Assembly: GCA_016783505.1 (NCBI GenBank)
Contig: JADHWK010000002.1
Coordinates: 1-64,000, forward strand
Source: Candidatus Zhuqueibacterota bacterium
GTDB lineage: Bacteria > BS750m-G25
Length of the DNA stretch: 64,000 bases
Direction of reading: 5' to 3'
Within the stretch, counting starts at the first letter, position 1; every line of letters starts with the position of its first letter. Shown here one piece after another: positions 18,339 to 41,585 of this stretch. A program made the position numbers and the translations under genes. A model generated the notes under the pieces. The model made no database searches. It saw nothing but the letters and a program-made list of their open reading frames with translations, and had not been told where the DNA came from.

Positions 18339-19034
18339 TCAATCATCCGTTTCAATAGTTACACGGGGGATAATCTCGCAAAACAGGCTTGATTCATCCA
18401 CCTCTACAATCCGTGCATCTACGTTTAATTCCGCGGTCAATGATAGGAATCGGTGTGGCTGCACTGTTGTTGCTGTGAAGCCGTCCTTGCATACAATCAA
18501 ACCGCGGCGCGTCTTTTTGCGGTCAATTTCTCCCAGGAGCCCGGCTTCCGACTGCAGTTGAAACCATTCCAATCGATCTTTCCAGAATTTATCGGAATAG
18601 CTTGAAAAGAGGACGGTTCCTCCAGGTTTGGCCACGCGAATGCTTTCCCGGATTAAGTCTTGTTGATTCACATGGAATGCCGATATTCCGTTCTGGATGC
18701 AGATGACCCGGTCGAAAATACGGTCGCGGAAGGCAAGTTGAACCGCACTCATATTAAGCAGATGGAATTTTGAAACAATGTGGTACATTCCCCGTCCGAG
18801 TAGCAAACTGGCAAGAGAAGTATCAATTCCAATAACCCATCCGGATTTTTGGGCGAGGCGGGAGAGTATTCGCCCATAACCACAGCCCAGTTCCAGAACC
18901 ATGTCGCCGGGGCGGATTTTTCGGAGAACATAGTTCACCTCCGCCTTCAGGTATTGCCGAACCCGCGGAGGGGCGATTTCGTAGCAACGCTTTAGCCGTT
19001 CGGCCGAGAGTTTATCATTGTAATAGCCGATCAC
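18339..19034 (-). CDS. Class I SAM-dependent methyltransferase
   Basis: VLELGCGYG, GIDTS, RVAKPGG. Confidence 0.85.
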   Translation of the reverse strand: MIGYYNDKLSAERLKRCYEIAPPRVRQYLKAEVNYVLRKIRPGDMVLELGCGYGRILSRLAQKSGWVIGIDTSLASLLLGRGMYHIVSKFHLLNMSAVQLAFRDRIFDRVICIQNGISAFHVNQQDLIRESIRVAKPGGTVLFSSYSDKFWKDRLEWFQLQSEAGLLGEIDRKKTRRGLIVCKDGFTATTVQPHRFLSLTAELNVDARIVEVDESSLFCEIIPRVTIETDD

Positions 19035-23690: not shown

Positions 23691-24155
23691 CTAAAATTCA
23701 ACCTTATCCCCCACTCGAATTCCGTTTTCCTCAAACCATCCCTGGTTCATCTCGAGGGCATATAGAATTGGTGTTGGGGGGACATAAACCTTTGTATCGT
23801 CCAAGGGCTCCATTCGTTGGATATCTACAATTTCACCCTTAATGTTGATAAAAGCGATATCCAGTTGGATAAAGGTATTTTTCATCCAGAAGGAATGAAG
23901 CCCTTCATATTCAAAGACAAAAAGCATGCCCTCATTGGGGGGGAGATATTGGCGAAACATCAATCCTCGTCGCCTTGCCTCAGGGGTCTGGGCAATCTCC
24001 ACCCCGATGGAAATTCTGCCGACTTTTAAGGGCACCAAATCATCTTTTTGCCCTTGAATATAACCATTCTCCCCCTCTTCACGGAAAAACACAATAATGA
24101 GTATAACGGAAAACCCTAAGATGAGGGGAAGAAGGATCTTCTTACCCAAAACCAA
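23691..24155 (-). CDS. DUF192 family protein
   Basis: VEIA..RRRGLMFR..GMLFVF..FWMKNT..LDIAFI..ALEMN. Confidence 0.9.
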   Translation of the reverse strand: MVLGKKILLPLILGFSVILIIVFFREEGENGYIQGQKDDLVPLKVGRISIGVEIAQTPEARRRGLMFRQYLPPNEGMLFVFEYEGLHSFWMKNTFIQLDIAFINIKGEIVDIQRMEPLDDTKVYVPPTPILYALEMNQGWFEENGIRVGDKVEF

Positions 24156-24452
24156 CCCTCCAAAAATCCTATATCATTATTCCTCAAAAAAGTATAAGGA
24201 AAAAATAGTAATTTGTCAACAAAAAAATTTGACCAGGCTGAATTAAAATGCCCATCCCAATTTTCACCTTGACATTTTTCCCGAAATATCTTATATTTAT
24301 CAAAAGACATAAACGAACCAAAGGTCTGTGAAACATGCCCATCAGTCGAGATTCTAGAAAGATGTGGAAAACAACACGCAATAGTTCGTTTATAAATTGT
24401 TAGGTGCAATGATTTAAACTGTTTCGCCAACCATCAGTGGTCGGCTAAGAAT

Positions 24453-25132
24453 ATGTATACATTTGGTGATGAATTGAATATATTGGAAATAAAGGATAAT
24501 TGTAGGGCCAATTTCAACAAATACACTAGAAAAGCATTTGAATCTATCCCGAAAATTGAAAATCCAAATATTCTAGATCTTGGTTGTGGGACTGGCGTAC
24601 CAACCATTGAAATAGCAAATTTGTCTAATGGAAATATACTTGCTATTGATTCAGACAAGGAGTGTCTAGATTGGCTTAAGCAAAAGATTAAGATATTAAA
24701 CTATGGTGAAAGAATTTCAATTATTCATGATTCCATTTTTACAGTGAATCTTCCTGAAAATAATTATGATATAATTCTTGCAGAAGGATTATTTAATATT
24801 ATTGGTTTTGAAAAAGGCCTATTGGGCTTTTCTAAGTTTTTGAAAACGAATGGCTATTTCATAATTCATGATGAATTTCAAAATAGAGAAAAAAATTACA
24901 TATTATTGAAGAATATCAATATGAGTTAGTGAAATCCTTCATTTTAGATGAAAAGATTTGGTGGAATGAATACTATAGTTGTCTAGAAAAAAAGATGATG
25001 GATTTTAAGAAAGAAATTGCTAATAACATAAATTCAAAGAATGTATTTAAACGAGAAAGATCTGAAATAGATATGTATAAGAAAAATCCATTGAAATTTA
25101 GATCAATATATTATGTTCTTAAAAAAATATGA
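24453..25132 (+). pseudogene. SAM methyltransferase split by a 1-bp deletion in an A-run; cassette cargo
   Basis: ILDLGCGTG; one more A in the A7 at 24889-24895 fuses the two ORFs (..NREKKLHIIEEYQYELVKSFILDEKIWW..). Confidence 0.8.
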
Positions 25133-25195
25133 AAAAATTGCTTTGCCTTCGCCGTCCTGGCTTCGGCAAGAAATAATAAATGGCATATGCACTGC

Positions 25196-25263
25196 ACCTT
25201 ACACGGCATATCCAAAATTACTCCCTTTGGTCGCAACTTCGGATTATGCAGGTACCGTTAGCT
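25196..25263 (+). mobile_element. attC-like site 1
   Basis: TGCACCTTAC (25193-25202) pairs 9/10 with GTTAGGTGCA (24399); inner GGCATATCC/GGATTATGC arms; ends GTTAGCT. Confidence 0.7.
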
Positions 25264-25574
25264 GAAATAAGCCCAATTTTATCAGCGGTAAAAAGATAGC
25301 CGTGAATATGGATATTATATTATTGAGATCCTTATGAGCATTTGTCTAGCGAAAGTGGATGAACATAGATCTAGGATTTAAGGCGTAAGCCTTTTATAAA
25401 ATCCTTATGGATTAAATCCGTTCAAGTCGTGATGAACTTTTCAAAAACAATTAGACAATAGAACAATTTTAGAGTATAACATTTGTTTTACTCATCTCTA
25501 ATTCTCGAATTGCTACGGTAATTAGTATAAAAGCCAAGATGAACAAAAATTGAAAGGAAAATAAAGAGTAAAAG

Positions 25575-28145
25575 ATGTTCAAAATCCAATGTTATTTTAT
25601 ATTGTTTTTAATATTTTTCTGGCAAACGTTTGTTTTTGCAGAAGAACACTCTATCCCGACCATCAACGCCGTTCGAACAGAAGAAGAGATCATTATTGAC
25701 GGGCTTTTGAATGAATCTATATGGCAGGGAGAAGGGTATTCCGACCTGATTCAAAAAAATCCCATTGAAGGGGCACCCCCTACGGAAAAAACTTCCGTTC
25801 ATATTGCCTATAATGATCAAGGGTTGTATATCGGGGCTCGTTGCTATCATAGCGGGAGCGATTCCATTCAGGGCGGGCTTGCCAGAAGAGATAAATCGGT
25901 TCAGTCAGATTGGTTCTGGTTCTGGATAGATCCCGATAAGAACGGGCATAACGGATTTGGTTTTGCTGTCAATCCAGACGGTTCCATTATTGACAGGAAG
26001 CTCTTCCAGGATATTCATTATGATAATGACTGGGATGGAGTCTGGGAAGCTGCTGCCAAAAAACATGAAAATGTTTGGACAGTGGAAATGTTAATACCCT
26101 ACAATCAACTCCGATTCGATAAAAAAGATGAATATGTTATGGGAATAAATTTTATGCGCTATATTCTTAAAAACGCCGAATATGATTATTTTGTAATGGT
26201 ACCCAAAAAGGAAACCGGTTTTGTTTCCAAATTTGGATTGCTAAAAGGAATCAAAGGGATTGAACCCCCATCGAGGTTTCAAATTATGCCCTATACAATG
26301 GCAAAAGCCTATGATTTATCTGAAGATAAAGACAGCCCCTTTTATGATGATAACAAATACATGCAGAATATTGGGATTGATTTGAAATATGGAATAACTG
26401 GAAATTTGACCTTAGATTTGACCATGAATCCTGATTTTGGCCAGGCGGAAGTAGACCCGGCCCAGATTAACCTCTCTGCTTTCGAAACCTATTATTCTGA
26501 AAAAAGAACTTTTTTTATTGAAGGTTCGGAAATATTCTCTTTTGGGGACAATCCAGCCGGGGGATTGTGGGGATGTTACTGGGCTGAGCCGGATATTTTT
26601 TACAGCAGAAGGATCGGAAGAAATCCTAAAGGGGAGGCCTCTCATGAGGGATTTGAAGACAGACCGGAACAAACCACTATTTTGGGGGCGGCAAAAATAA
26701 CCGGCAGGATAGGAGACTGGTCGGTCGGTAGTGTCAGTGCGGTCACCGATAGAGAATTTGCCAGAGTTGATTCTTCAGGAATACGATTCAAAGAGGAAAT
26801 AGAACCCCGTTCTTATTATGGAGTTTTAAGAAGCAGTAAAGAATTCAGTAAAGGAAATCAGGGGCTGGGGTTTATTATGACAGGGGTGACAAGGGATTTG
26901 AGAACCCAAGGGCTAAAACAGATTTATAACCGGAATGCGTTCGTATATGGAATGGATGGTTGGTCGTTTCTGGACAAAGCGAGGGAATGGGCGTTTATAG
27001 GAAAATTTGCCCATTCATATGCGGATGGGACCAAGGAGAGAATTCTGGACCTACAGCAGGAGTCAGGGCATTATTATCAAAGACCTGATTTTGACTATAT
27101 ATCTCTGGATTCAAACCGAACTTCATTGTCCGGAAGCATGGCAAGGTTTGGTCTATTAAAAACAAAGGGGAATGTATCATTTCAATCAGCGCTGGGAATT
27201 ATCTCTCCCGGTTTTGATACAAATGATCTGGGATTTAGCTGGTTTACAAATGTGATCAATATGCATGTTGTTGGAGGATATAGCTGGTTCCAACCCACTA
27301 ATTGGTTCAGAAGATCCAGTATTAATTTGATGATTTCAAGAAATTATGATTTCGACGGGAATAAATTGTTTCAACAGTACTATTTTACGGGACATATTAC
27401 CTTTCTTAATTACTGGGGCATTCATTCGTCCCTACAAATCACCCCGGATGGATTGGATTTATTTGATACCCGGGGTGGACCGGCTATTGCATATCACGGA
27501 TATCAGTATATGAACCTGGGATTTTATTCAGACGACAGAAAAAAAGTGAGGGTTTATGGAAGTATGAGTTATCGGGCTGTGAATGATGGGGCATATAGTA
27601 GAGATTTTGATATTGATTTTGTTTATAATCCCTCCCCTTCAATAAAGTTGACCCTTTCCGCAAACCTTTACAAAGAACTTGACCATCAGCAATGGGTGGA
27701 TAACATTGCCGATTCCTCTGCGGTTTCTACTTATGATACAAAATATATTTTTTCAGATTTAGACGAAACAATAAGATCGGGCACAATCCGACTGGATTGG
27801 GGATTCACGCCCAGACTATCATTTCAAATGTATATTCAGCCCTATATTGCAGTGGGACATTACTCTCATTTCAAGGAATTAATGGAGGGGGGCACCTATC
27901 ATTTTAAAGAATATGATTATCAGGAATCTAATCCGGATTTTAATTATAAATCTTTCAAAGCGAATATGGTTTTACGTTGGGAATATCGTCCCGGCTCTTT
28001 GATCTATTTGGTATGGACACAAAACCGGGAAAATGATGACAGACCCGGAGTTTATAATTTAAAGGATGATATCCAATCTCTTAGGGATGAAGATTCTGAC
28101 AACATATTCCTGGTTAAATTAAACTATTTATTCACTGTTCGTTGA
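25575..28145 (+). CDS. CBM9-like plus DUF5916 outer-membrane protein
   Basis: Signal peptide; IDGLLNESIW; DWDGVW; LTMNPDFGQAEVD; EKRTFFIEG; FYSRRIG; LRWEYRPGS. Confidence 0.85.
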   Translation: MFKIQCYFILFLIFFWQTFVFAEEHSIPTINAVRTEEEIIIDGLLNESIWQGEGYSDLIQKNPIEGAPPTEKTSVHIAYNDQGLYIGARCYHSGSDSIQGGLARRDKSVQSDWFWFWIDPDKNGHNGFGFAVNPDGSIIDRKLFQDIHYDNDWDGVWEAAAKKHENVWTVEMLIPYNQLRFDKKDEYVMGINFMRYILKNAEYDYFVMVPKKETGFVSKFGLLKGIKGIEPPSRFQIMPYTMAKAYDLSEDKDSPFYDDNKYMQNIGIDLKYGITGNLTLDLTMNPDFGQAEVDPAQINLSAFETYYSEKRTFFIEGSEIFSFGDNPAGGLWGCYWAEPDIFYSRRIGRNPKGEASHEGFEDRPEQTTILGAAKITGRIGDWSVGSVSAVTDREFARVDSSGIRFKEEIEPRSYYGVLRSSKEFSKGNQGLGFIMTGVTRDLRTQGLKQIYNRNAFVYGMDGWSFLDKAREWAFIGKFAHSYADGTKERILDLQQESGHYYQRPDFDYISLDSNRTSLSGSMARFGLLKTKGNVSFQSALGIISPGFDTNDLGFSWFTNVINMHVVGGYSWFQPTNWFRRSSINLMISRNYDFDGNKLFQQYYFTGHITFLNYWGIHSSLQITPDGLDLFDTRGGPAIAYHGYQYMNLGFYSDDRKKVRVYGSMSYRAVNDGAYSRDFDIDFVYNPSPSIKLTLSANLYKELDHQQWVDNIADSSAVSTYDTKYIFSDLDETIRSGTIRLDWGFTPRLSFQMYIQPYIAVGHYSHFKELMEGGTYHFKEYDYQESNPDFNYKSFKANMVLRWEYRPGSLIYLVWTQNRENDDRPGVYNLKDDIQSLRDEDSDNIFLVKLNYLFTVR

Positions 28146-28188
28146 TGTTATTAATAACCATCCCCATACAATTAAAGGATCACAATCC

Positions 28189-28626
28189 TTGATTCCAGTT
28201 CTTTTAACTTGTAACATGCTTACACACAAAATTAAAATGAATAAACAAACTTCAGCAAATGACATCCCCTCTGTAAACGAAACTTTTACCTTTATAATCC
28301 CTTATCATACCCTTCAAGTTACCCCTCAAGTCACCGAGCAAGTCACCGAGCAAGTCACCGAACAAGTCACCGAACAAGTCACCGGACAAGTCACCGGACA
28401 AGTCGAAATGATGGATAGAATTGCTTCCACGTTAAAACACTGTGAAACACCGAGGTCTCTAAGAGAGATCATGACGTTTTTAAAGCTGAAACATAGAGAG
28501 ACCTTTATGGAAAAAGTGCTACATCCACTCTTAGAGAAAGGCTACTTAAGAAGGACAATCCCAGATAAACCGAGAAGTAGATTTCAGAGGTATGTAGCAG
28601 TAAAGGAAAAGAAAAATGAGCAATAA
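28189..28626 (+). pseudogene. C-terminal remnant of a Fic/RecG-C type protein (QVT repeats plus winged helix)
   Basis: (QVTE)n followed by LKHRETF..LHPLLEKGYL..TIPDKPRSRFQRY; N-terminal catalytic part absent. Confidence 0.7.
28316..28404 (+). repeat. 12-bp tandem repeat CAAGTCACCG(A/G)(A/G), ~7 copies
   Basis: Direct reading; encodes QVTP/QVTE/QVTG. Confidence 0.9.
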
Positions 28627-28744
28627 TCCAAAACCCGGCTACAAACTCACCGAACTAGGTGAAATACCAGAAGAGTGGCAAGTGGTAAGGTTTGGGGAGG
28701 TCATTTTGGTAAAACTCAGGTATAAAGGAGTCAATAATAGATAA
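28616..28744 (+). pseudogene. Type I RM hsdS 5' stub 1
   Basis: MSNNPKPGYKLTELGEIPEEWQVVRFGEV then unrelated sequence and stop. Confidence 0.8.
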
Positions 28745-28751
28745 TCAAGCA

Positions 28752-29258
28752 ATGGTTCCAATAGAAATAATTGAGAAGCGAATTTATTTGCTCCGTGGAA
28801 AGAAGGTTATGATTGATTCGCATTTGGCAGAATTATATGGAGTAGAAACAAAACAATTAAAAAGACAAGTTAGAAGAAATGTAGAAAGATTTCCTGATGA
28901 TTTCATGTTTGAGTTAACACAAGAAGAATATCAGGATTTTTTAAGGCGCCAATTTGGCACCTTAAAGAGAGGCAAATATTCAAAATATATTCCATACGCA
29001 TTCACAGAACAGGGTATAGCTATGCTTTCCAGTGTGCTGAATAGCAAACGAGCTATACAGGTTAATATCCAGGTTATGCGAGCTTTTGTAAAACTCCGTG
29101 AGATGCTTACTACACACAAAGAACTTGCTCGCAAATTAGAACAATTGGAAAAGAAATATGATGCACAGTTCAAAATAGTATTTGATGCAATCCACCAGCT
29201 TATGGCACCACCCAAAAAGCCACACCGAAAGATTGGGTTTCATAGAGAGGGGAAATAA
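28752..29258 (+). CDS. ORF6N domain DNA-binding protein
   Basis: RGKKVMID..LAELYGVET..VRRNVERFPDDFMFELT..PYAFTEQGIAMLSSVLNS..RKIGF. Confidence 0.92.
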   Translation: MVPIEIIEKRIYLLRGKKVMIDSHLAELYGVETKQLKRQVRRNVERFPDDFMFELTQEEYQDFLRRQFGTLKRGKYSKYIPYAFTEQGIAMLSSVLNSKRAIQVNIQVMRAFVKLREMLTTHKELARKLEQLEKKYDAQFKIVFDAIHQLMAPPKKPHRKIGFHREGK

Positions 29259-29326
29259 TGAATAAATACAATAAGTTTAAACAAACAAAAATCGGCGAAA
29301 TACCTGAGGAGTGGAAGAATGTTTGA
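29258..29326 (+). pseudogene. Type I RM hsdS 5' stub 2
   Basis: MNKYNKFKQTKIGEIPEEWKNV*; ATG overlaps the ORF6N stop. Confidence 0.75.
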
Positions 29327-29604
29327 ACCAAATTTCCGCTACAGTCATAAGATTGTTAAAAATCTCACGCTAATTAAGCAAAGATATCAAGATTCTTAAA
29401 GAGAGGGGACAAATTGCATTAACTGAGAGGCAGATGAAGATTGTGGAATGGATATTACAAAATGGCAAGATAACAAATAAAGATGTAAGAGAGATGTTTA
29501 AAATTTCAGATCGAGCAGCCTTGAAGGAAATAAGAAAATTGGTGGATTCAGAAGTGGTTAAATCAGAAGGTAAAGGAAGAAGCCTGTATTATATTCTGGA
29601 ATAA
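29319..29604 (+). pseudogene. Internally deleted Fic-family gene (N-terminus plus C-terminal HTH only)
   Basis: MFEPNFRYSHKIVKNL joined out of frame to ..LTERQMKIVEWILQNGKITNKDVREMFKISDRAALKEIRKLV..GKGRSLYY*. Confidence 0.65.
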
Positions 29605-29614
29605 TGCGGTATAT

Positions 29615-29662
29615 GGTTCGGGATTAGGTTCGGGATTAGGTTGGCGATTAGGTTGGCGATTA
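29615..29662. repeat. 12-bp tandem repeat, 4 copies (GGTTCGGGATTA x2, GGTTGGCGATTA x2)
   Basis: Direct reading. Confidence 0.85.
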
Positions 29663-29687
29663 CTAGTTGGGAAAGACAAAAATTAAC

Positions 29688-29770
29688 AATAGCCTAAGCC
29701 CTGACTAAAAACTCACCGAATTTGGAAAGACACCAGAAGAGTGGTTAGGCTGGGTGATATACTTTCATTT
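29688..29770 (+). pseudogene. Type I RM hsdS 5' stub 3 (degenerate)
   Basis: ..PD*KLTEFGKTPEEW..RLGDIL; aligns to stub 1 with TAC to TAA change. Confidence 0.65.
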
Positions 29771-30059
29771 AAGGGTTGCCAAAAAGAAGAGACCCAAAAA
29801 TATAAACCAACTAAGAGATCGTGAAACATGCCAATAAGGGATGTTATTCAAAATGCTTCGCTTATACATAGTTATCTGACATTGCCCGCCCTGGAAAGTT
29901 GATGTCAATGAAAACTGATAAAGAAATATCTCCAAATGTTAGCATCCACCACCGAATTAAAGCTACTAGAAGCGTGGGTATGTGCCACTGGGAGGTACAA
30001 AACAAAAGAACATATAATAAGAGAAATGTTTTATCAAATCTGGAATACTCGGGGGTGAG

Positions 30060-33000
30060 ATGATGGCCATTAAAATCAAATGGGACCACGAATTTATTAA
30101 ACAAGTTGCAGCTCAAAATGAGAAATATAAAGATGATCCACTAGTAGAAAAATTAACGGATTTTATTGCTAAGAGTGTCTACTCATCCCCATCTCATTTT
30201 GCATTAGAAATGATCCAAAATGCTGACGACGAAAAATCTACTGAGATAAAATTTTATTTTGAAAAGAATAATAAAATCATAGTTACTAATAATGGTAAAA
30301 AATTTTCAAAAGATGATGTCAGGACAATTTGTTACGCAGGGCATAGCCTAAAGAAAAACAAAAAGGGATTTTTCGGAATAGGATTTAAATCGGTTAAAAG
30401 GATAACAGATACTCCTCAAATTATATCTAGCAATTACAATTTCGTTATCCATAAATATTATCACCCAGAACCATGCAAAGAGATCCCAGAAGATATAACA
30501 TTCAACCCTCAAAAAGGTGCAATTTTTATTTTGCCTTTGAAATCTAAAAAAGAATATAACAACATTTTCAAAAATTTTATGGAAGAAACCAATGAGAATC
30601 TATTATTGTTTCTTGATTATATTAAGAAAATTTATATTATCGACAGGAGGAAAAAAGAAGAAAAGACTCATGTTTTGTCTTATGACCGTAAATATGGAAT
30701 TTTAGAAAATTCATATACGGGTAATAAATCGTTTTGGAAAGTATTTAAGAAGATAATCTATGTACCCAAACGTATTCGTAAACCAATGGGAAAAGAAAGG
30801 GTAAGAAAAACTGAGATGGCTTTAGCATTTCCAGCAGATATAAAGGATACCCCAGATCCCCAAAAACTATTTTGTTATCTGCCGACAGAGCGTTTCACCG
30901 GTTACCCCTTTATAGTTCAGGGCGACTTTTTACCCATATTAGGCAGGAGCAACATAGACGAAGAAGATCCTTGGAATAAACACCTATTAAACCAATTGTC
31001 AGAATTAATTGCAGACGCCTTTGAAAATCTAAGAAACTATCCCAATTTTAGATTGCGAATACTTTCATTTCTTCCACTAAAGGAAGAATGTCATGATGAG
31101 TTATTTATTAAGTATATAGACGCTATCTATACGGAATTAAAGAACAGAGAGATTGCATTCACACGAGATATATGTTTTAAAAAACCGACAGATTCTATCG
31201 ATCTTTCCCGCGATCTATGGGAGCTCTTTAGCAATGATGATTTACAAGAGATTTACAAAAATGAAAAATTTGTGATATCGGACGGGTATAATGACCATGA
31301 AAGGAAGATTTTATCTCTGTTGGGCATGGAAACGTTCGGATTAGATAATATAATCTCATTCTTCAAAAATAATAAGGGTATAAGGAAGAAAGTTGTGGAT
31401 CCAAATTGGTTTGTTTCTATTTATGCATACATAAATGACGATTTTGACGACTATGAGAAAGATGATTTGAGGAATGTTCCATTTCTCTTATCTGAAACAG
31501 AGGAGCTTATTTACTCAGAAGATCCAAAAAAAATGGATAAACCAAGGCTAATTGCCAATCAGTATATGAACAAGGAAACCTCATTTTTTTCTGAATTGTT
31601 CAATAAAGATAAACTAATATTCCTCCATAAGAGATTTAGAATATCTAGAAATCAAAAGAAGAATAAAAATTACGATCGCCGACTCGATAAGGTTCATCAG
31701 TTATTTGAATTTCTTGGTGTAATTAGAATGGTTGAGGCGCATCATATTATTACACAACTCATATTACCAAAATTTCAGGAAACGCGAAACGGGAAACGTC
31801 TAGGTCATAAAAAAGCCATTTTATTCACAAATTTTATTCTTGAAAATTTGTCATATTACCGTAAAATATACGGAAGCCGTACAAAAACTGATGATTGGGA
31901 AATTTTCTCAGACATTAGGTCAAAAATCCTAGTACTTGCAGAAAAGAGGGATTCTACTAGTAAGAAAAGATATGTCTTTTTATCCCCAACGGAGGTTTAT
32001 AGACGTGGTGAGGGAAAGAAACTACTCCCTGAAAAATATTTTAGGGGTTTGACTGAGGTACCATTTATCTCCAGAAAATATTTTTCCAAAAAGATCTTAG
32101 GTAGTTTTACTAGCATACCGATTACGCAAGCAAGTAAAAGACGTAAGATATATTCTTGGGATGCTTTCTTCCATTTGATGGGGGGTTGGGAAATCCCAAG
32201 AGTAATACCAATTAGTCGGAGTTATTCTCGATACGACTCAAGACTAAAAGATGATTTCCCAAATGTCGATTGGGACTATGAATATGATTCTACAACAGGA
32301 TACGAAATTAAAGATTGGATAATGCCAGAGTTAACTGATACCATTCGAAAGTACATCAACACAAAGGTTAAAGTTGAAAAAGACCGATTGAAACATCGGT
32401 TAGTTTATATTAGAGAAAGCGTTGCAAAAAATTGGAAAAAATACAAAGATTATAAAAAAGCAGAAGCCTCATATTTTTATTATTCAGATGGGGATATCAA
32501 AGTAGGTTCAACTTTTTATCAACAGCTAAAAAAACCTTGGTTTCCAAGATCTACCGACGGAAAATTAATAATACCTTCAAAAAATTACAAAGATACAATT
32601 GATAATAGATATTTAGCGCCCAAAGGCTCTGATTTTATAGATATACCCCCAGGGTCGAAAGAATTTTATAAGGAAATAGGGGTAATTGAAGATCCTGATC
32701 CAAAGGATGTGCTTGAAAGATTGCAGAAGATAAAAGCACATTGGGATAAAGTTAACAAGATACCCCTAGATAGCTTTAAGAAAATGGAGGCTTATTATAA
32801 GTATTTAGTTGATAAAAGTAAAACAAATCCTGATTTAAAAGATGCAATCGAAAGTATATTTTCAAAAAAGTATGTAATATTTCTTCCTACAAAAGTCCGT
32901 GGTAAAACGAAAATATGGTGGCATAGAGACCAAGTATTTGCAATAGAAACTTTGGATCATTCCCTTACACCATTTTTTCAATCGTTATTTCAGGAAGGAG

Positions 33001-34574
33001 CATACAGCATAGAACTAGAAGAGACATTTATTTCCCTAGGCGTTAGAATTAGTCCGAGCTTTAGAGACTACAAAGAAACCTTTCAACACATTATGAAGGA
33101 GTGGGGAAAAGCCTCAACAAACAAAAGATTGGAACTTAAGGGAAAAATTAGTTATGCTTTAGAAGGGCTAAGTACATTGATCGAAAGCGAATCGGTAGAC
33201 GATGATGAAAAAATTAGGAAACTATTCGATGAAAATATTTTCTTAACCGATCAGAATGAATTTTTAACACCCAATGAAATATATTTGAAAGACGATTACG
33301 AAATCTATGAGGTATTTCAAGATTGTATTCCCACATTGTGGTACAACGGTGAAATAGCATCTATTTCATCATCATTGATAAGGATAGGTTTCAACTCGTT
33401 AAAAGATTATAAAGACAAAAGAAAAGCAAGGTTTATTGATAAAGAATTTATTCATAAAGATGATCTTCCAAAAATGATAGAATTTTGTGAAGTTATTGAG
33501 GCCTTCATAGAAAATAGATTCAGTACATTATATGATAAGCAAAGGGAGAATATCGCTAGATCTAAAGATTTACAAATTTATACAGCAAAAAATATAAAAG
33601 TTACTTACTTCTTAGAGGGCAAAAAGCGAATAAAAAATAATGTGCCCATTTACTTATCGAAAAATGAACTTGTGATATCTACCGCCGAAAACGATCCATG
33701 GTTAGAAGTAATCAGAGATGACTTTTCAAAATGTTTGTCCTCAATTTTTGGAGATTTAGGTCCTCATTTGAGACCTTTGATCAATGATTTGCATCAAAAC
33801 CCAGAAGACATTAACGTTGTCATTCAAAAGTGGGGGTTAGAAAGGGGACGTGTATTTAAAAAATATGTTGAGGAGGAAAGCCAAGTAATCAAGATGCCTT
33901 TGGCTCAAGCGAAAAAAGAACTTGAGACCTTTGGAGAAGAGGTCGAAGAAGAACCAATAACCCAAGTAGTTGATATCACAACCACACCAACCCAAACACC
34001 ACAACCCAAGAGCAAGGATGAGGAAGTTTTCCCGTTAGAAACAATCAACGGTTTTATTATAAAAAACATTAAAACAGGCGAAGTGACTACATTACCACTC
34101 AAAAGAAGAAAGATAAGAAAAAGTAAATTGCCAAAAAAGAAGGGAATTTCTAAAACTTATACCCCATTTTCATCTCAAATGACGGAGGATATAGCTGTAG
34201 AAATCGTAAAAAAGTTTGAAGAATCTCAAGATCGAGTGGATATAAAAGATGTGAGAGATGATGAAGATGAGGGTTGTGACTTAATTTCATCTGGGAGGGG
34301 TGGGAATCGTCTGATAGAAATAAAAGCTTCCAAGGGTAAAAGACCGCAAATTAAACTTCGGCCATCTCAATATAAAAGAGCAAAACAAGATAAAGAGAAG
34401 TATTACATTTACAAAGTAGAAAACATAGAGAAAGGAAAATTACCACATATCGAAATAGTTCAGAATCCGATAGAGAATCCAAAGATTAGAATTGTTCATT
34501 TAGGAGAAGTTAAAATAGAAGGATGGGAAAACTCGGATAAAATCTCAATCGATGTAAGGATTGAAGAAAATTAG
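30060..34574 (+). CDS. Sacsin/NOV-like GHKL ATPase with C-terminal DUF3883 (PD-(D/E)XK) domain; candidate defence protein
   Basis: ALEMIQNADD, NNGKKF, GFFGIGFKSV, FCYLPT, QGDF; C-terminal GCDLIS..LIEIKAS..SQY; AT-rich. Confidence 0.85.
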   Translation: MMAIKIKWDHEFIKQVAAQNEKYKDDPLVEKLTDFIAKSVYSSPSHFALEMIQNADDEKSTEIKFYFEKNNKIIVTNNGKKFSKDDVRTICYAGHSLKKNKKGFFGIGFKSVKRITDTPQIISSNYNFVIHKYYHPEPCKEIPEDITFNPQKGAIFILPLKSKKEYNNIFKNFMEETNENLLLFLDYIKKIYIIDRRKKEEKTHVLSYDRKYGILENSYTGNKSFWKVFKKIIYVPKRIRKPMGKERVRKTEMALAFPADIKDTPDPQKLFCYLPTERFTGYPFIVQGDFLPILGRSNIDEEDPWNKHLLNQLSELIADAFENLRNYPNFRLRILSFLPLKEECHDELFIKYIDAIYTELKNREIAFTRDICFKKPTDSIDLSRDLWELFSNDDLQEIYKNEKFVISDGYNDHERKILSLLGMETFGLDNIISFFKNNKGIRKKVVDPNWFVSIYAYINDDFDDYEKDDLRNVPFLLSETEELIYSEDPKKMDKPRLIANQYMNKETSFFSELFNKDKLIFLHKRFRISRNQKKNKNYDRRLDKVHQLFEFLGVIRMVEAHHIITQLILPKFQETRNGKRLGHKKAILFTNFILENLSYYRKIYGSRTKTDDWEIFSDIRSKILVLAEKRDSTSKKRYVFLSPTEVYRRGEGKKLLPEKYFRGLTEVPFISRKYFSKKILGSFTSIPITQASKRRKIYSWDAFFHLMGGWEIPRVIPISRSYSRYDSRLKDDFPNVDWDYEYDSTTGYEIKDWIMPELTDTIRKYINTKVKVEKDRLKHRLVYIRESVAKNWKKYKDYKKAEASYFYYSDGDIKVGSTFYQQLKKPWFPRSTDGKLIIPSKNYKDTIDNRYLAPKGSDFIDIPPGSKEFYKEIGVIEDPDPKDVLERLQKIKAHWDKVNKIPLDSFKKMEAYYKYLVDKSKTNPDLKDAIESIFSKKYVIFLPTKVRGKTKIWWHRDQVFAIETLDHSLTPFFQSLFQEGAYSIELEETFISLGVRISPSFRDYKETFQHIMKEWGKASTNKRLELKGKISYALEGLSTLIESESVDDDEKIRKLFDENIFLTDQNEFLTPNEIYLKDDYEIYEVFQDCIPTLWYNGEIASISSSLIRIGFNSLKDYKDKRKARFIDKEFIHKDDLPKMIEFCEVIEAFIENRFSTLYDKQRENIARSKDLQIYTAKNIKVTYFLEGKKRIKNNVPIYLSKNELVISTAENDPWLEVIRDDFSKCLSSIFGDLGPHLRPLINDLHQNPEDINVVIQKWGLERGRVFKKYVEEESQVIKMPLAQAKKELETFGEEVEEEPITQVVDITTTPTQTPQPKSKDEEVFPLETINGFIIKNIKTGEVTTLPLKRRKIRKSKLPKKKGISKTYTPFSSQMTEDIAVEIVKKFEESQDRVDIKDVRDDEDEGCDLISSGRGGNRLIEIKASKGKRPQIKLRPSQYKRAKQDKEKYYIYKVENIEKGKLPHIEIVQNPIENPKIRIVHLGEVKIEGWENSDKISIDVRIEEN

Positions 34575-34644
34575 CAAATAATAAACACACAATCCGAAAG
34601 AAATATTTGCACCTCCCACATATAACCGAGAGGCGGGCAACATC

Positions 34645-34736
34645 AGATAACACAGCATATACACTTCGGGCTTACGCCTTTGCCCTTTGGGACATTTTGC
34701 TATCGCAAAACGTCGTATATGCTGGAAACGTCATAC
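34645..34736 (+). mobile_element. attC-like site 2
   Basis: TCAGATAAC (34643-34651) is the exact complement of GTTATCTGA (29871); CAGCATATAC/GTATATGCTG arms; right core GTCATAC. Confidence 0.75.
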
Positions 34737-34940
34737 GCCATGCAGTGCCTGAAAAAGAATAAGGAGACTTATAGAGAAAAAAAGCCGAACAGCAAGTTAA
34801 AGAGACTGGCTTTCAGAAATGGCGTCATCCAGGTGGTAAACTTAGGGAACTTGGTATTGAGTCAATTTTAAATAATAAAACCCGAATAAATTCAAAGCGT
34901 CTACTTTGGTCAGAAATTACAAAATAAAAGGAGGTTTAAA

Positions 34941-36221
34941 ATGAAGAGATTTTTAAGTATCCTGTTTGCTTTGTGCTTGAGCGGACTTTTGGCTTCCGCA
35001 CCCTTGGCACAAACCAACAAGGTCAAGTACATCAAAAAGTACTATGACCCGGTTCTCGAGGAGATGAGGGAAAAAGCCAAAAAGGAAAAAGAGGAAAGCG
35101 ATTCCTTAACCACCGAGATCCGTGACCGACAGAAGGAACGGAAGGAAGAAGAACGAAAAGAGAAGGAGATCATCCGTTTCAATTTTGTCAAGGTCAAAAA
35201 ACCCGCTTCTCCCGAGGTTTTTAAATCAGCATTCCACTTCTCCCCCATGCCCCAATTCCGCACCGGCACCTGCTGGAGCTTCTCCACCACCTCTTTCCTG
35301 GAATCGGAAGTAACCCGCCTGACCGGGCAAAAAATAAAACTCTCGGAAATGCATACGGTTTACTACGAATACCTGGAAAAGGTGCGCCGCTACGTTCAGG
35401 AACGGGGCGACTCCGAGATGGGTCAGGGTTCCGAGGCCAACGCGGTCACCCGTATCATCAAGAAATATGGCATGGTGCCGCGGGAGGTTTACCCCAGCCT
35501 GATGGATGAAGATGATCGCTACGAGCACACCCGACTCGCCAAGGAGATAAAAAACTACCTGCGCTGGGTGGATAAGCACGGCTACTGGGACGAGGAGGGG
35601 GTTATCGCCGCGGTTAAGGCTATCCTGAACAGATACATGGGAGCCCCACCCATCTCCTTTGAATACAACGGGGAGACGATGACCCCCCTGGAGTTCCTGC
35701 AGGACATCCTCAAACTGAACTCCGACGATTACGTGGGCGTGATGTCCACCCTCTCGCTCCCCTTTTACACCCAGGGCGAGTTCAAGGTGCCCGATAACTG
35801 GTGGCACAGCAAAGACTACTACAACGTTCCTTTAAAGGAGTGGTACGGCATCATCAAGAGTGCGGTGAAAAAGGGCTACACCCTTACCATTGGCGGGGAC
35901 GTGAGCGAGCCGGGCTACAACGGCTTTGAGGACGCTGCCATCGTTCCGGATTTTGACATCCCCCAGAAATATATCAATCAGGACTCACGGGAGTTCCGCT
36001 TCTACAACAAGACCAGCACCGATGACCACGGTATTCACCTGATCGGTTATGCTAAGGTCGGCGGCCGCGATTGGTTCCTGATCAAAGACTCAGCCCGCAG
36101 CTCCCGCCACGGCAAATTTAAGGGCTACTATTTCTACCGAGATGATTACATCAAGCTGAAGATGCTGACCTTCATGGTACACAAAGACGCCATGAAGGAC
36201 ATCCTGAAAAAGTTCAATTAA
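34941..36221 (+). CDS. Exported C1 (papain/bleomycin hydrolase-like) cysteine peptidase
   Basis: Signal peptide; QFRTGTCWSFS; LSEM; DDHGIHLIG; IKDS. Confidence 0.88.
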   Translation: MKRFLSILFALCLSGLLASAPLAQTNKVKYIKKYYDPVLEEMREKAKKEKEESDSLTTEIRDRQKERKEEERKEKEIIRFNFVKVKKPASPEVFKSAFHFSPMPQFRTGTCWSFSTTSFLESEVTRLTGQKIKLSEMHTVYYEYLEKVRRYVQERGDSEMGQGSEANAVTRIIKKYGMVPREVYPSLMDEDDRYEHTRLAKEIKNYLRWVDKHGYWDEEGVIAAVKAILNRYMGAPPISFEYNGETMTPLEFLQDILKLNSDDYVGVMSTLSLPFYTQGEFKVPDNWWHSKDYYNVPLKEWYGIIKSAVKKGYTLTIGGDVSEPGYNGFEDAAIVPDFDIPQKYINQDSREFRFYNKTSTDDHGIHLIGYAKVGGRDWFLIKDSARSSRHGKFKGYYFYRDDYIKLKMLTFMVHKDAMKDILKKFN

Positions 36222-39613: not shown

Positions 39614-40755
39614 ATCCCTTTAGTTATATTGTTGTGAATGTAGTTGAAATCTTGCTGAGGGTTGTTCCTCTTCCCTGCAGGGCAGGTTTGGTTAAAATAG
39701 GGAATCCGGAGCGGCACTCGCCTGTTTTCTTAACCTGCAATTATCATCTGACTGTAGAGAGGGTAAAAAGAGCATTGAAGGGGGTTGATTGTTATCTTCT
39801 TGTTGCTAATAGCCGGGGAATCAACGTGTGGTGTGCGGCGGCCGATGGCCATTTCACCAATCACGATGTTATCTCAGTTCTTAAAACCAGTGGAATTGAA
39901 GAACTGGTAGATCACAGAAATGTGATAATGCCCCAACTGGCTGCCACCGGTGTTGAGGCCAAAATTATTCATAAGAAATCAGGATGGAAGACTATCTGGG
40001 GGCCGGTTTATGCCAAAGATATTCCCCTTTTCATACAAAACAATCTCAAGAAAACCCCGGAAATACGGGAAGTTGAGTTTCCTCTGACCCAACGTATTGA
40101 ATTAGCTGCCAGTTGGGCATTTCCGATTTCCATATTCTTAGCTCTCATCATAATTCCATTTTGGCCTGAAGCGATTTTCCCCATCATTCTTATGATTTGG
40201 GGGTTGTCCTTCTTAATCTTCATGTCTTTTCCCCTTTATAGCCGGTGGCTAAGTTCTGAGGGAAAGAGGATTGGCCTTATCTTCTTCGATTTTGGGCGAG
40301 GAGGATTTCAACTAATCCTATGGTGTTTACTTATTATTGGGATTATTGCTTATAGTCATTTATTTGTAGAGTTTAGTTGGGGATTTATTTTTCGCTGGGG
40401 TTTTATTTCATTCATTGTTGTTCTCGTGCTAAGCCTTGATCTAATGGGCAGTACCCCTGTATATCATAGCGGCTTACATGAAGATAGATTGCTAAAAGTC
40501 ATTCTTGATGAGAAGAAATGCAGGGGGGCTGGTTTTTGCGAGCAGGTTTGCCCCAGGAATTGCTATGGGGTGGATAGCAACCGGCATATGGCGGCAATGC
40601 CGAAAACCGAACGCTGTGTTCAATGCGGGGCCTGTATCGTCCAATGCCCCTTCAATGCCTTGTATTTTAAAAATCCCAAGGGGGAAATAATACTCCCGGA
40701 TACCATCAGAAAATTTAAGTTAAACCTTTTAGGCAAGCGTCTAAGGGAGAAATGA
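39610..40755 (+). CDS. Fused HgcAB-like protein (corrinoid domain, 4 TM, ferredoxin)
   Basis: SPVFLTCNY, GINVWCAAADG, PQLAA, WGPVYAKDI; TM block; CRGAGFCEQVCP and CVQCGACIVQCP. Confidence 0.88.
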   Translation: MNPFSYIVVNVVEILLRVVPLPCRAGLVKIGNPERHSPVFLTCNYHLTVERVKRALKGVDCYLLVANSRGINVWCAAADGHFTNHDVISVLKTSGIEELVDHRNVIMPQLAATGVEAKIIHKKSGWKTIWGPVYAKDIPLFIQNNLKKTPEIREVEFPLTQRIELAASWAFPISIFLALIIIPFWPEAIFPIILMIWGLSFLIFMSFPLYSRWLSSEGKRIGLIFFDFGRGGFQLILWCLLIIGIIAYSHLFVEFSWGFIFRWGFISFIVVLVLSLDLMGSTPVYHSGLHEDRLLKVILDEKKCRGAGFCEQVCPRNCYGVDSNRHMAAMPKTERCVQCGACIVQCPFNALYFKNPKGEIILPDTIRKFKLNLLGKRLREK

Positions 40756-40904: not shown

Positions 40905-41585
40905 TTAAAACACCCATTCAGCAACTAAAATCCCTGTCGCTCCGTGATGGAAAGAATGGACTTTCAGTTCAGATAGATCAAATTTGGAAATTACCCCCCT
41001 TAATCCCCCCTCCCCCATGAATTGCTTAAAGTTCCTGAAGTGATCCCCGCCAGCCTTCCTTTCAACGGCTCTCTGGACCAAAGCTATCATCTTAGAAATC
41101 GGGGTTGTGGGAACGACATAGTCAGCGATGAGGAGCTTACCTCCCGATGTGGTAACTCTATGGGCTTCTCCTAAAACCCGTTTTCTATCATCCGGGGTTT
41201 TTTCGTGCAGGGCAAAGGATAAAATTACGCAGTCAAAGGTTCGGTCCTCAAAGTGCAGATGCCTCGCATCTTCCCTGAAATAATGAATGCCGCCCGGACT
41301 ACTTTCCCTGGCCATCCGGATCATCGCTTCGGAAGAATCAACCCCTGAGACCCGGAACCCTTTATTATGAAGAAGAATGCACTGCGCCCCCGTTCCACAG
41401 CATAAATCAAGGATATTCTGAAAGCTAAATCTTTCTGCAATGGCAACTATCTCCTTCTTTATAGACCTTAACACGGGCTCAAGGAGGTAACCATAAACCC
41501 ATGTTGAATATTCGTAATCAGCTTTCGGCTTGGTTACCGCCTCAGGTACGCTTCGCACTATGATTGTAGATGTTTCCGTATTCAT
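40905..41585 (-). CDS. Class I SAM-dependent methyltransferase (UbiE-like)
   Basis: ILDLCCGTG, GVDSS, SFALHE; ATG at 41585 overlaps the permease TGA. Confidence 0.85.
   Translation of the reverse strand: MNTETSTIIVRSVPEAVTKPKADYEYSTWVYGYLLEPVLRSIKKEIVAIAERFSFQNILDLCCGTGAQCILLHNKGFRVSGVDSSEAMIRMARESSPGGIHYFREDARHLHFEDRTFDCVILSFALHEKTPDDRKRVLGEAHRVTTSGGKLLIADYVVPTTPISKMIALVQRAVERKAGGDHFRNFKQFMGEGGLRGVISKFDLSELKVHSFHHGATGILVAEWVF

Follow-up and report, generated by a model that had tools for sequence, protein, structure and literature searches.

How did a single gene of 4.5 kb, with a short sequence before it and the complement of that sequence at the opening of a fold-back behind it, come to sit where it does, and is it a mobile gene cassette? 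From the whole 64-kb stretch of DNA that was analysed (the window), we consider it probable, at roughly 0.78, that positions 29872–34730 make up a single gene cassette belonging to an integron-like system. At its end lies a folded attC-like site, from a family that is conserved in sequence and found in many genomes of bacteria and archaea, and the first ~20 nt of the cassette pair with bases ending in the inner core of that site.

The cargo consists of one gene and the leader in front of it:

30060–34574, plus strand: tmtA, encoding a Tiamat defence protein of 1504 aa with PADLOC, Pfam and NCBIfam matches
29891–30059, plus strand: 5' leader of the cassette, ~87% identical at the nucleotide level, from 29877 onward, to that of a tmtA homologue in the metagenome locus L030

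The sequence-only reading had described the product as a sacsin-type ATPase/nuclease. Both domains were found, in a layout of an N-terminal sacsin-type GHKL ATPase, a long middle region and a C-terminal NOV_C/DUF3883 PD-(D/E)xK nuclease: Pfam SACS covers residues 30–130 (51.7 bits, cut-off 32.8), NOV_C covers residues 1376–1459 (35.9 bits, cut-off 22.1), and the NCBIfam model P_loop_sacsin for the sacsin ATP-binding domain scores 69.9 bits (cut-off 50). The sharper identity is Tiamat TmtA: residues 11–1472 align with positions 5–1286 of 1302 in the PADLOC TmtA profile PDLC03972 at E 3.8e-93, and seven more PADLOC TmtA profiles match, each with E <1e-15. The catalytic sets are present in both domains (E..QNA.D and a glycine-rich lid in the ATPase, D...ExK in the nuclease); Q53, N54, D57, N77, G106, G108, D1407, E1420 and K1422 are invariant in 24 of 24 aligned homologues, and E50 is nearly so, in at least 90% of them. 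Judged by its sequence, the gene is a full-length Tiamat TmtA with intact catalytic residues. By analogy with the Bacillus cereus protein, the GHKL ATPase would license the C-terminal PD-(D/E)xK nuclease against phage DNA, and we infer an anti-phage function from this homology. The association with defence that had been proposed for the gene is borne out by the PADLOC match; other site-bounded units of the genome carry defence genes as well.

Identity to most members of the Tiamat family is ~20–30%. The protein falls into a tight subgroup of metagenomic proteins at 58–85% identity, which includes one from a Thermoplasmata archaeon MAG at 62%; a search of the genome contig collection gave no close TmtA relative. 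Upstream of tmtA, a plus-strand scan returned no sigma-70-like promoter, by a consensus that may not be that of the host.

The core at 29871 and its complement at 34643, on which the sequence-only reading was built, are present and are the tips of a longer structure. GTTATCTGA (29871–29879) and TCAGATAAC (34643–34651) are the outermost parts of an inverted repeat of 20 nt, 29871–29890 and 34632–34651, in which 18 of 20 positions are complementary. With up to 3 mismatches allowed, the 20-mer occurs at two places only in the window, and two matches were reached in 0 of 100 shuffles. The ends are laid out as follows:

29871–29890, plus strand: cassette start, the left arm of the inverted repeat, in which TTATCT is the half of the R' core that belongs to the cassette
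Within 29871–29890, plus strand: extension GACATTGCCCGCC, which pairs with 34632–34644
34632–34651, plus strand: right arm of the 20-nt inverted repeat, made up of the extension GGCGGGCAACATC and the R'' core AGATAAC (34645–34651)

G29871 is presumably the last base of the upstream partner. Among upstream stretches, the cassette start pairs best with the R'' extension of the site, with 2 of 17 positions mismatched against a control minimum of 4. At 4.86 kb, 4.5 kb of which are filled by the gene, the cassette is the largest of the eight with defined ends in the genome, in keeping with the earlier description of an unusually large single-gene cassette.

A repeat that brackets a gene could also be read as the terminal repeats of a non-autonomous transposon carrying tmtA, with the fold-back as an unrelated neighbour. 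This would suit the 18/20 repeat on either side of the gene, as it would the homology to L030, which is bounded by the repeat; yet no transposase was found, and there is no target-site duplication at 29870/34652. The outer 7 nt of the repeat are, moreover, the R'/R'' cores of the site family, and like start/end repeats bound cassettes between chained sites on contig C82 and in other genomes, where the left arm abuts the previous site. These points make a transposon very improbable.

The right arm leads directly into the site that closes the preferred reading, the cassette:

34645–34736, plus strand: attC-like recombination site of 92 nt, supported by the covariance models R1 and R2, the fold and L-stem covariation
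34645–34651, plus strand: R'' AGATAAC, followed by one spacer base
34653–34662, plus strand: L'' CAGCATATAC, the first of the two exact arms
Between L'' and L', plus strand: two inner hairpins, as given by the site architecture
34715–34724, plus strand: L' GTATATGCTG, the second of the two exact arms
34725–34729, plus strand: spacer GAAAC between L' and R'
34730–34736, plus strand: R' GTCATAC, as read in the window

The 92-nt fold-back, with its exact arms and its end in GTCATAC, is thus as it had been reported from the letters, and crossover presumably falls after G34730. The bottom strand, for which an attC-type structure had been anticipated, folds over 34625–34745 with −21.3 kcal/mol (z = −3.1), equalled in 1 of 200 shuffles; the top strand of the same stretch has a z of −2.6. 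Taken alone, the 10-mer L arm is not significant (17 of 100 shuffles reach 4 matches at ≤1 mismatch), so that the weight rests on the 20-nt repeat and the family models. Of these, R1 is a covariance model from 9 sites of the same genome, excluding the tmtA site and its near-twin on C82, and R2 was made only from other species (99 sites, 76 loci). R1 ranks 34645–34736 first in the window at full length (30 bits, E 3.5e-4), and R2 matches exactly 34645–34736, again at full length, with 44.4 bits (E 2.4e-8 in the window, 9.5e-7 genome-wide); both scores, 30 and 44 bits, lie below the 50–86 bits of typical family members. Compensatory changes occur in 10 of 12 L-stem pairs, in the 9-site and the 99-site alignment alike, and the inner L-stem pairs of the tmtA site differ from the consensus on both sides with pairing kept. 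Its arms are 96–97% identical to C82:10383–10443, part of an array of three sites.

Across bacterial and archaeal phyla the family shares sequence, with a conserved inner stretch of ~70 nt, a perfect L stem, R–L spacers of 1 nt versus 5 nt, and an outer stem that extends 10–20 bp past the 7-nt cores. GTT is found in 87 of 98 sites, GTC in 4 of 98, and TAAC in nearly all. As GTC recurs in these other sites, the suggestion that a change from GTT to GTC locked the tmtA cassette in place is a conjecture. The R'' of the tmtA site keeps TAAC, with purines at two Y positions of RYYYAAC, and its R' departs from GTTRRRY, which places it outside the canonical core-site definition. Of the earlier proposal of an integron-type cassette, the start/end complementarity and the R1 and R2 matches hold; the site departs from a canonical attC, and no upstream site abuts the cassette. 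No Rfam family reached its gathering score in the window, and the conserved sequence of the site, searched as text in the main texts of the literature, was found in no paper. Naive genome scans for hairpins with AAC/GTT were unspecific (819 matches in a scan with no shuffle control; 159 against 92 and 73 against 47 in shuffles) and served only for choosing seed sites by eye. A further hairpin candidate at 18234–18355 on the minus strand was confirmed by neither R1 nor R2.

Do the sites behave like cassette boundaries? In arrays of the family, the first 17 nt of a cassette are complementary to the stretch that precedes the next site, rather than to the one preceding its own. Among adjacent site pairs of other genomes, the extension of the next site is matched in 7 of 10 (≤4/17 mismatches), the own extension in 0 of 10. 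In the genome studied here, 8 of 21 sites have an upstream partner at ≤3/17 mismatches, the tmtA site among them with 2; the chain controls, 20 random 8-kb stretches per site, gave minima of 3–5 mismatches. The tmtA unit obeys the start/end complementarity rule of its family. A same-strand ORF ends ≤400 nt upstream in 21 of 21 sites and ≤70 nt upstream in 14 of them, a count made without a control. Near such arrays elsewhere, the recombinase, where there is one, is co-oriented with the array and comes without the IntI-specific insertion.

The fold-back might still be unrelated to mobility, as a terminator or a generic intergenic palindrome of the REP/BIME kind. It lies 70 nt past the stop codon and folds stably, and the genome has other hairpin repeats, for example at C1:40268–41284. 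No T-run follows the stem, however, and a terminator was considered and dropped; a palindrome of this kind would leave much unexplained: the orientation to the upstream ORF fixed in every one of the 21 sites, the conserved AAC...GTT cores, the chaining to the next site rather than the own, the sequence conservation across bacterial and archaeal phyla, and the tyrosine recombinase that adjoins sites of the family in 8 of 80 loci. We find such an origin scarcely credible. A tRNA-fragment attachment site was also considered as a reading of the fold-back and dropped; no tRNA or tmRNA usable as an attachment site was found.

On the cassette reading, a tyrosine recombinase would cut at G|TT in the 3' core, and the last six bases of the core would go to the next cassette; the start/end pairing of the tmtA cassette is the footprint expected of such a cut. 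The unit would once have moved as a circle via the folded bottom strand of its site, and would now be stranded on the right margin of a cassette island at 24399–34736 that is decayed and low in GC. A foreign origin is favoured by a GC content of 0.31–0.36 against 0.46 for the genome; GC stays at 0.29–0.40 over 24000–35000 against 0.42–0.60 in the flanks. The remainder of the island comprises:

24399–25263, plus strand: probable neighbouring cassette, decayed, with the start GTTAGGTGCAATG, on the left margin of this low-GC island
24453–25132, plus strand: frameshifted methyltransferase gene in the decayed cassette, from a reading of the sequence
25196–25263, plus strand: degenerate site of the decayed cassette, with R'' ACCTTAC and R' GTTAGCT
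28189–29870, plus strand: gene debris between the two cassettes, with no R1 or R2 match at E up to 10 and filters off

The stretch 24399–25263 is probably a decayed cassette of the same island, although the case is weak: its site reaches 16.6 bits with R1 (E 0.35) and 18.9 bits with R2 (E 0.05), and its start/end complementarity of 12/17 is no better than in controls. The debris holds a Fic-like_C fragment, an ORF6N gene (PADLOC PDC-S05), a 12-bp tandem repeat and three N-terminal stubs with the motif 'GEIPEEW', which we take to be HsdS-like from the typical N-termini of HsdS. No site ends at 29871; with R1 and R2, filters off and E up to 10, nothing was found between 25263 and 34645, so the tmtA cassette does not stand in a tidy array. 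Searches for the start of a further cassette gave no partner within 3 mismatches of 20 for the bases after 34730 or for those after 25257. The nearest candidate site, 25196–25263, is 9.4 kb from the tmtA site, beyond the spacing of a CALIN, which is defined as at least two attC sites <4 kb apart with no integrase.

Could the genome have supplied the recombinase? The MAG is 59.9% complete, and all genome-wide negatives cover its recovered part. There, no integron integrase exceeds the curated cut-off of 265 bits, and the search for intI that the sequence-only reading had put forward as a check yielded no intact gene, only an internally deleted remnant on another contig (C44:2866–3190), which joins positions 1–55 and 263–304 of the integron-integrase model; integron integrase is the top NCBIfam match for both pieces. 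On C82, three chained sites lie behind a recombinase fragment. The fragment and its full-length relatives match TIGR02249 with 236 bits in two stretches, the insertion being absent, and recombinases of this type score 230.9 bits with XerA_Arch, above the cut-off of 220. Other site-bounded units of the genome hold a type II R-M system (C36), a methyltransferase (C29), a CARF6 gene with an ORC/Cdc6-like ATPase (C82) and a SIR2/pAgo-associated-like protein (C9); those with R-M and CARF genes measure 3.5–3.9 kb. The 30 comparison genomes share only the domain with this genome, and no close relative is among them.

The homologue loci complicate the picture. The sequence-only reading would take homologues never flanked by attC as a refutation, and this is the case at the three loci fetched with close tmtA homologues (81–85% aa identity), none of which has a model match next to the gene. 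Conversely, TmtA is absent from the 80 site-bearing loci that were fetched, so that gene and site are found together only here. Nucleotide homology to L030 spans ~29877 to ~34646 and stops at the outer edge of each 7-nt core, to within 1–2 nt, rather than at G|TT, and contigs of one other study share only 34639–34736, TCATAC included. Neither observation is predicted by simple movement of a whole cassette. In contigs and reads of four runs there was no joint skipping 29871–34730 and no empty site, which says little, as three of the runs gave only short or partial contigs.

Several of these observations would fit another account, in which the site and the two 7-nt cores belong to a resident cassette of the C82 kind and the tmtA unit, with its own inner inverted repeat, came from an AT-rich donor and replaced the content of that cassette, so that gene and site never travelled together. 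The L030 homology covers just the interior between the cores, the site is missing from all three homologue loci and shared by itself with the contigs of the other study, and a C82 cassette with an unrelated 219-aa gene has the same cores GTTATCTG/CAGATAAC and the same two L arms. A precise cargo swap between cores, however, has no known mechanism. The ends of L030 (GAAATTGCTCGCC ... GGCGGGCAACATC) resemble the extended boxes typical of cassette starts in the family, so L030 may itself be a decayed cassette of that family, and the core 7-mers come from a small repertoire, which makes a shared core weak evidence of common descent. We judge a foreign cargo in a native shell unlikely, and retain the cassette as a unit of gene and site.

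A wider proposal is possible rather than probable: that the sites belong to a pan-prokaryotic integron-like system distinct from classical integrons, with a ~70-nt conserved core, the 1/5 spacer and the 10–20-bp outer stem, a XerA/IntI-like integrase without the IntI insertion, and routine multi-kb defence cassettes. In such a system the integrase would point the same way as the array, with a short hairpin and then G|TT behind it. The halt of cargo homology at the edges of the 7-nt cores hints that its cassettes may arise, or be refilled, when cargo is joined to site shells that are ready-made, which, if true, bears on the open question of cassette origin.

Why would this matter? In 2025, defence genes were reportedly shown in integron cassettes, mostly in Vibrio, and cassettes are said to be small and streamlined, as size limits recombination. 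A 1504-aa Tiamat as one cassette in an uncultured marine or aquatic bacterium runs against this picture. If cassettes of this size are mobile, or once were, the limit does not hold generally, and Tiamat, which is called rare in prokaryotes, gains a means of transport between phyla and even between domains; the archaeal protein in the close TmtA subgroup would accord with this. R1 and R2 together are a searchable handle for defence cargo in thousands of metagenome-assembled genomes.

Finally, we would like to place the locus among known systems. It resembles integron cassettes and attC sites, CALIN and SALIN included, in that behind one promoterless-looking gene lies a folded site whose cores are AAC...GTT and whose L stem covaries; site and ORF point the same way, the first cassette bases are complementary to the inverse core, and arrays are co-oriented. 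Canonical attC sites have a roughly symmetric unpaired central spacer and extrahelical (bulged) bases in the L stem, which set the choice of strand, a task that the asymmetric spacer of the family may or may not take over. The site family differs from these in its 1 versus 5 nt R–L spacer, the lack of textbook L-stem bulges and the 10–20-bp outer extension. Unlike a complete integron, the tmtA locus has a singleton site, a GTC in R', and intI as a remnant on another contig only; it is a lone site, or SALIN in the wording used in the excerpted text of Darracq et al. (bioRxiv 10.1101/2024.07.02.601686). Nearly identical sites in bacteria and archaea recall the cross-domain attCs of Ghaly et al. 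2022 (bioRxiv 10.1101/2022.02.06.479319), whose excerpts give 23 archaeal attCs as 95–100% identical to bacterial ones.

An anti-phage gene as an integron-type cassette, in a genome with several other site-bounded defence units, is a likeness to the bacteriophage-resistance integron cassettes (BRiCs) of mobile integrons, going by excerpts of Kieffer et al. (bioRxiv 10.1101/2024.07.02.601719), and to the defence cassettes in the sedentary chromosomal integrons of Darracq et al. In the excerpts of the latter, cassette defence systems are smaller than elsewhere, never have more than two components, and long loci are absent; excerpts of the preprint 10.64898/2026.03.17.712381 report no recovery of a cassette whose sites were 4 kb apart, and lower recovery as size grows. 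Unlike these limits, a single 4.5-kb gene is found here in a 4.86-kb cassette. The word 'Tiamat' does not occur in the main texts of Kieffer et al. and Darracq et al., whose supplementary tables may list it.

As a defence system, Tiamat itself consists of a single gene (Millman et al. 2022, as cited in bioRxiv 10.64898/2026.09.30.754977). According to excerpts of the latter (Yuan et al. 2026), the B. cereus protein protects against T5 and T6, E44A abolishes protection, and pure Tiamat hydrolyses ATP and cuts ssDNA. There, Tiamat is recognized by an N-terminal GHKL/HSP90-like ATPase and a C-terminal NOV_C (DUF3883) domain in one protein, which the tmtA product combines, with SACS and NOV_C above cut-off. 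It is also Tiamat-like in its order of GHKL/sacsin ATPase, long middle and NOV_C/DUF3883 PD-(D/E)xK nuclease, its ~1500 aa and its kept catalytic residues. The contexts given in the text of that paper are defence islands and neighbouring helicases, methyltransferases and nucleases, and the word 'integron' occurs 0 times in it, unlike the probable integron-like cassette around tmtA here.

The unit at 29872-34730, which contains the gene tmtA, is well supported as one 4.86-kb cassette of an integron-like system. The sequence-only reading had proposed a large integron-type anti-phage cassette here, and its observation was confirmed as a whole: the repeat, the fold-back and the 1504-aa ORF are all present. 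The two 9-mers that it had picked out, found at 29871 and 34643, mark the outer ends of a 20-nt inverted repeat that has no other copy in the window, and two matches were obtained in none of 100 shuffles. Folding of the bottom strand, as it had suggested, gave -21.3 kcal/mol for the fold-back (z = -3.1).

Features of the tmtA cassette, in window coordinates
29871-29890 and 34632-34651: arms of the inverted repeat, 18 of 20 bases complementary
30060-34574: tmtA, the single long ORF between the repeat arms, 1504 aa
34653-34662 and 34715-34724: exact 10-nt arms of the fold-back, starting one base past the right arm of the repeat
34730-34736: GTCATAC, the 3' core, separated from the fold-back arm by GAAAC

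BLAST of the tmtA 3' flank against the window's own genome assembly (G000) returned both arms again, at 96-97% identity, on contig C82. This C82 copy is the middle site of three, which come after three gene units of like orientation with a tyrosine-recombinase fragment ahead of them. A simple pattern scan found similar elements on many G000 contigs. Nine G000 elements, with the window's site and its C82 twin left out, were aligned for a covariance model (R1); in this alignment RNAalifold predicted a 12-bp stem, 10 pairs of which show compensatory changes. Over the window with all filters off, R1 ranked 34645-34736 first (30 bits, E 3.5e-4), and the match takes in the full model length and ends exactly as expected. 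Over G000, its matches at E up to 1 numbered 19, with E < 1e-4 for 14 of them. Beyond this genome, a pattern drawn from the commonest site form occurs in at least 115 stretches of species-representative genomes, which come from very many bacterial and archaeal phyla; some of the stretches are on contigs of 140 kb to 1.6 Mb. A second model (R2) was built on 99 foreign sites alone, gathered by R1 from 76 loci. Their alignment runs in the order TAAC, one base, a covarying L stem, two small inner hairpins around a CCCAAAT box, five bases and GTT, the last being present in 87 of 98 sites. R2 scored 44.4 bits at 34645-34736 (E 2.4e-8 for the window, 9.5e-7 for the whole genome); the covariance-model check that had been called for, carried out with family-specific models, thereby gave a match with both.

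Where does such a cassette begin? In classical integrons, crossover splits the 3' core between G and TT. The six core bases beyond that G are therefore part of the following cassette and pair with its inverse core. For 21 G000 sites, the 17 nt ending in the inverse core were reverse-complemented and looked for in as much as 8 kb of upstream sequence, with twenty random controls per site (minima 3-5 mismatches, medians 5-7). A partner with at most 3 mismatches was found for 8 of the 21 sites, defining cassettes of 452, 673, 686, 813, 3471, 3849 and 4860 nt and an ambiguous one of 5052 nt. The partner of the tmtA site lies at 29871 (2 mismatches), and on C82 and C1 the preceding site's 3' core is precisely where the partner begins. 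In other genomes, the extension of the next site was matched (at most 4 mismatches in 17) in 7 of 10 adjacent site pairs and a site's own extension in 0 of 10. These partner tests in G000 and elsewhere make the long start/end repeat a regular trait of the site family. A same-strand ORF ends within 400 nt upstream of all 21 sites and within 70 nt of 14, counts made without a control.

Other site-bounded units and attC-like sites in G000, by contig
C82:6524-12320 (locus L009): a 139-aa C-terminal piece of an XerA/IntI-like recombinase, followed by three chained sites
C36:51336-54812: 3.47-kb cassette with a type II methyltransferase and a restriction enzyme
C29:6343-11470: large unit with a 610-aa methyltransferase
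C9:1783-5600: large unit with a SIR2/pAgo-associated-like protein and a protease-domain protein
C11:968-1100, C30:5823-5949, C37:24358-24449, C53:6168-6242 and C77:7446-7521: second kind of attC-like site

Defence genes are the cargo of the large units on C36, C29 and C9. The third C82 cassette (3.85 kb) encodes an ORC/Cdc6-like ATPase, a 187-aa ORF and a CARF6 protein (PADLOC E 1.5e-35). The second, more canonical-looking kind of site, seen in a pattern scan only, reads AGCTAAC .. CCGCATCAACTCGG ... CCGGTTATGCGG AGC GTTAGGC and has bulged bases in its L stem. Separately, contig C1 carries a 116-nt hairpin repeat in two identical copies at an interval of 900 nt (40268-40383 and 41169-41284), with CCAAC...GTTGG ends.

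The cassette was also followed in four public sequencing runs, which come from three studies. One run yields a 5142-nt contig identical to the window over 29701-34842. A join across the cassette is absent from the contigs and reads of all four runs, and nothing in them points to excision at the present day. Depth over the site region alone is several-fold higher, with contigs that diverge on both sides (bin 34532-34815, runs X2 and X8), a depth that fits a repeated site. Contigs of run X8, from another study, match only 34639-34736, including TCATAC, and diverge on either side; T>C at 34679 occurs in five contigs in each of two runs. Since these site-only contigs diverge on both sides, the site subtype is carried by other cassettes in those communities. 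The GTC of the tmtA 3' core, a change proposed from sequence as one that may have locked the cassette in, turns up in 4 of the 98 sites from other genomes and in the contigs sharing only 34639-34736, and is a recurrent variant.

The cargo is of a known kind, Tiamat. PADLOC identified the 1504-aa protein as TmtA, the single Tiamat protein (E 3.8e-93; residues 11-1472 aligned to positions 5-1286 of the 1302-position profile). Pfam places an N-terminal sacsin-type ATPase domain and a C-terminal NOV_C domain (formerly DUF3883) above cut-off, and an NCBIfam profile concurs on the TmtA ATPase domain. In an alignment with 23 homologues of 18-84% identity, Q53, N54, D57, N77, G106, G108, D1407, E1420 and K1422 are invariant and E50 nearly so; the 'QNADD' and 'D..ExK' motifs named from sequence are therefore real and intact. 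The nearest relatives are metagenomic proteins (75-85% identity), followed by a tier at 58-62% that includes one from a Thermoplasmata archaeon MAG; most of the Tiamat family is 20-30% identical.

Of its 91-kb contig, the window covers the first 64 kb, and G000 comprises 2.5 Mb in 89 contigs (59.9% complete, GC 0.46). Among 30 comparison genomes, none is nearer than the same domain, making an empty-site comparison impossible. Within the window, tmtA lies in a low-GC island (0.29-0.40) at about 24000-35000, flanked by GC 0.42-0.60.

Features of the island to the left of the cassette
24453-25132: methyltransferase gene at the left edge, in two overlapping frames (24453-24929 and 24929-25132)
1.7 kb upstream of 29871: gene debris with a Fic-like C-terminal fragment, an ORF6N gene, three HsdS-like stubs and a 12-bp tandem repeat
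28620-28700, 29258-29326 and 29710-29760: HsdS-like N-terminal stubs reading '..GEIPEEW..'
29607-29654: tandem repeat of four 12-bp CGGGATTAGGTT-like units

The split methyltransferase gene suggests a frameshift, and the putative start of its unit, GTTAGGTGCAATG at 24399, is the left edge of the island. Neither R1 nor R2 found a site abutting 29871 in the window; the nearest candidate, at 25196-25263, is weak (E 0.05-0.35), lies 9.4 kb from the tmtA site and follows the frameshifted gene. The three stubs, which we take to be N-termini of type I restriction specificity subunits (HsdS), are interspersed with a pair of Fic-like C-terminal winged-helix fragments and the ORF6N gene, which matches PADLOC candidate PDC-S05; the region has the appearance of a ruined type I R-M neighbourhood. 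We infer that the island is a decayed array with tmtA as its right-most member.

Three metagenome loci encode a TmtA 81-85% identical to the window's. The expectation that homologues would be flanked by attC sites did not hold for these, as no model match lies beside the gene in any of the three. TmtA is encoded in none of 80 site-bearing loci. In the best-preserved locus, L030, the DNA is about 87% identical from window position 29877 to at least 34629 and, by eye, on to 34646 across a 39-nt insertion; the homology therefore spans the interior enclosed by both 7-nt cores, ending 1-2 nt from their outer edges. The GC of the tmtA unit (0.31-0.36) is donor-like, not host-like, and its cores and L arms are those of the unrelated C82 cassette. 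Either L030 is a decayed cassette whose cores and site have been lost, or the tmtA cargo was joined to a resident site shell within the window's lineage.

The cassette leader contains a small ORF (29899-30063) starting M(S)MKTDKEIS, a start kept in L030 and the related contig L032, with the frames parting some 12 codons in; this ORF is possibly a leader peptide, possibly of no significance. The metagenome contigs also share a repeat of about 190 nt (copies 80% identical; L030:5286-5477, L031:5648-5842 and 10588-10631, L032:5-87), just 5' of the tmtA homologues and of a GIY-YIG-like gene. Rfam gave no match for this repeat; beside one partial copy lies a weak group II intron D1-D4 match (E 0.025).

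What about the integrase? A search of the 59.9% complete G000 for intI returned no integron integrase over the curated cut-off. The sole canonical IntI trace is an internally deleted gene at C44:2866-3190 (L033), directly 3' of an HtrA-like protease gene, which joins model positions 1-55 to 263-304 in a different frame; its N-terminal piece matches integron-integrase models and no XerC/D model. The C82 recombinase fragment is 60% identical to a full-length 369-aa protein of another genome, co-oriented with an adjoining three-site array, and relatives occur in 8 of 80 fetched loci. These recombinases lack the IntI-specific insertion and pass an 'XerA / integron integrase' model, not the integron-integrase model. 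On C82, a short hairpin and G|TT lie 53 nt past the fragment's stop, and a short hairpin followed by the G|TT of the first cassette is likewise found 3' of the recombinase stop in two other genomes. Canonical IntI (418 bits) was present in one of five genomes checked, on a short contig without such sites. Compared with canonical attC sites, which differ in R-L spacing, L stem and outer stem, the family has an uneven spacing between R and L boxes, with one base on one side against five on the other, a perfect L stem and a 10-20 bp outer stem. Packaging in an integron-like system is well supported; membership of the classical integrons is not established.

Finally, we would like to place the cassette beside published systems, where its size and the separate histories of its cargo and site are the points of interest. 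The conserved site sequence was not found printed in searchable papers, 'integron' is absent from the accessible text of the Tiamat paper (bioRxiv 10.64898/2026.09.30.754977), and 'Tiamat' from the accessible main texts of Kieffer et al. and Darracq et al. According to the Tiamat preprint (Yuan et al. 2026), Bacillus cereus Tiamat protects modestly against T5 and T6, depending on its ATPase glutamate, and the pure protein is an ATPase that also nicks duplex DNA and cuts single-stranded DNA. That integron cassettes can carry defence systems is established (Kieffer et al., Science 2025; bioRxiv 10.1101/2024.07.02.601719; Darracq et al., Science 2025; bioRxiv 10.1101/2024.07.02.601686); those described by Darracq et al. 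are small, with at most two components and long loci absent. A 2026 preprint (10.64898/2026.03.17.712381) reports that cassette size and recovery are negatively correlated, a cassette with sites 4 kb apart being unrecoverable. Near-identical attCs common to archaea and bacteria have been described by Ghaly et al. (bioRxiv 10.1101/2022.02.06.479319).
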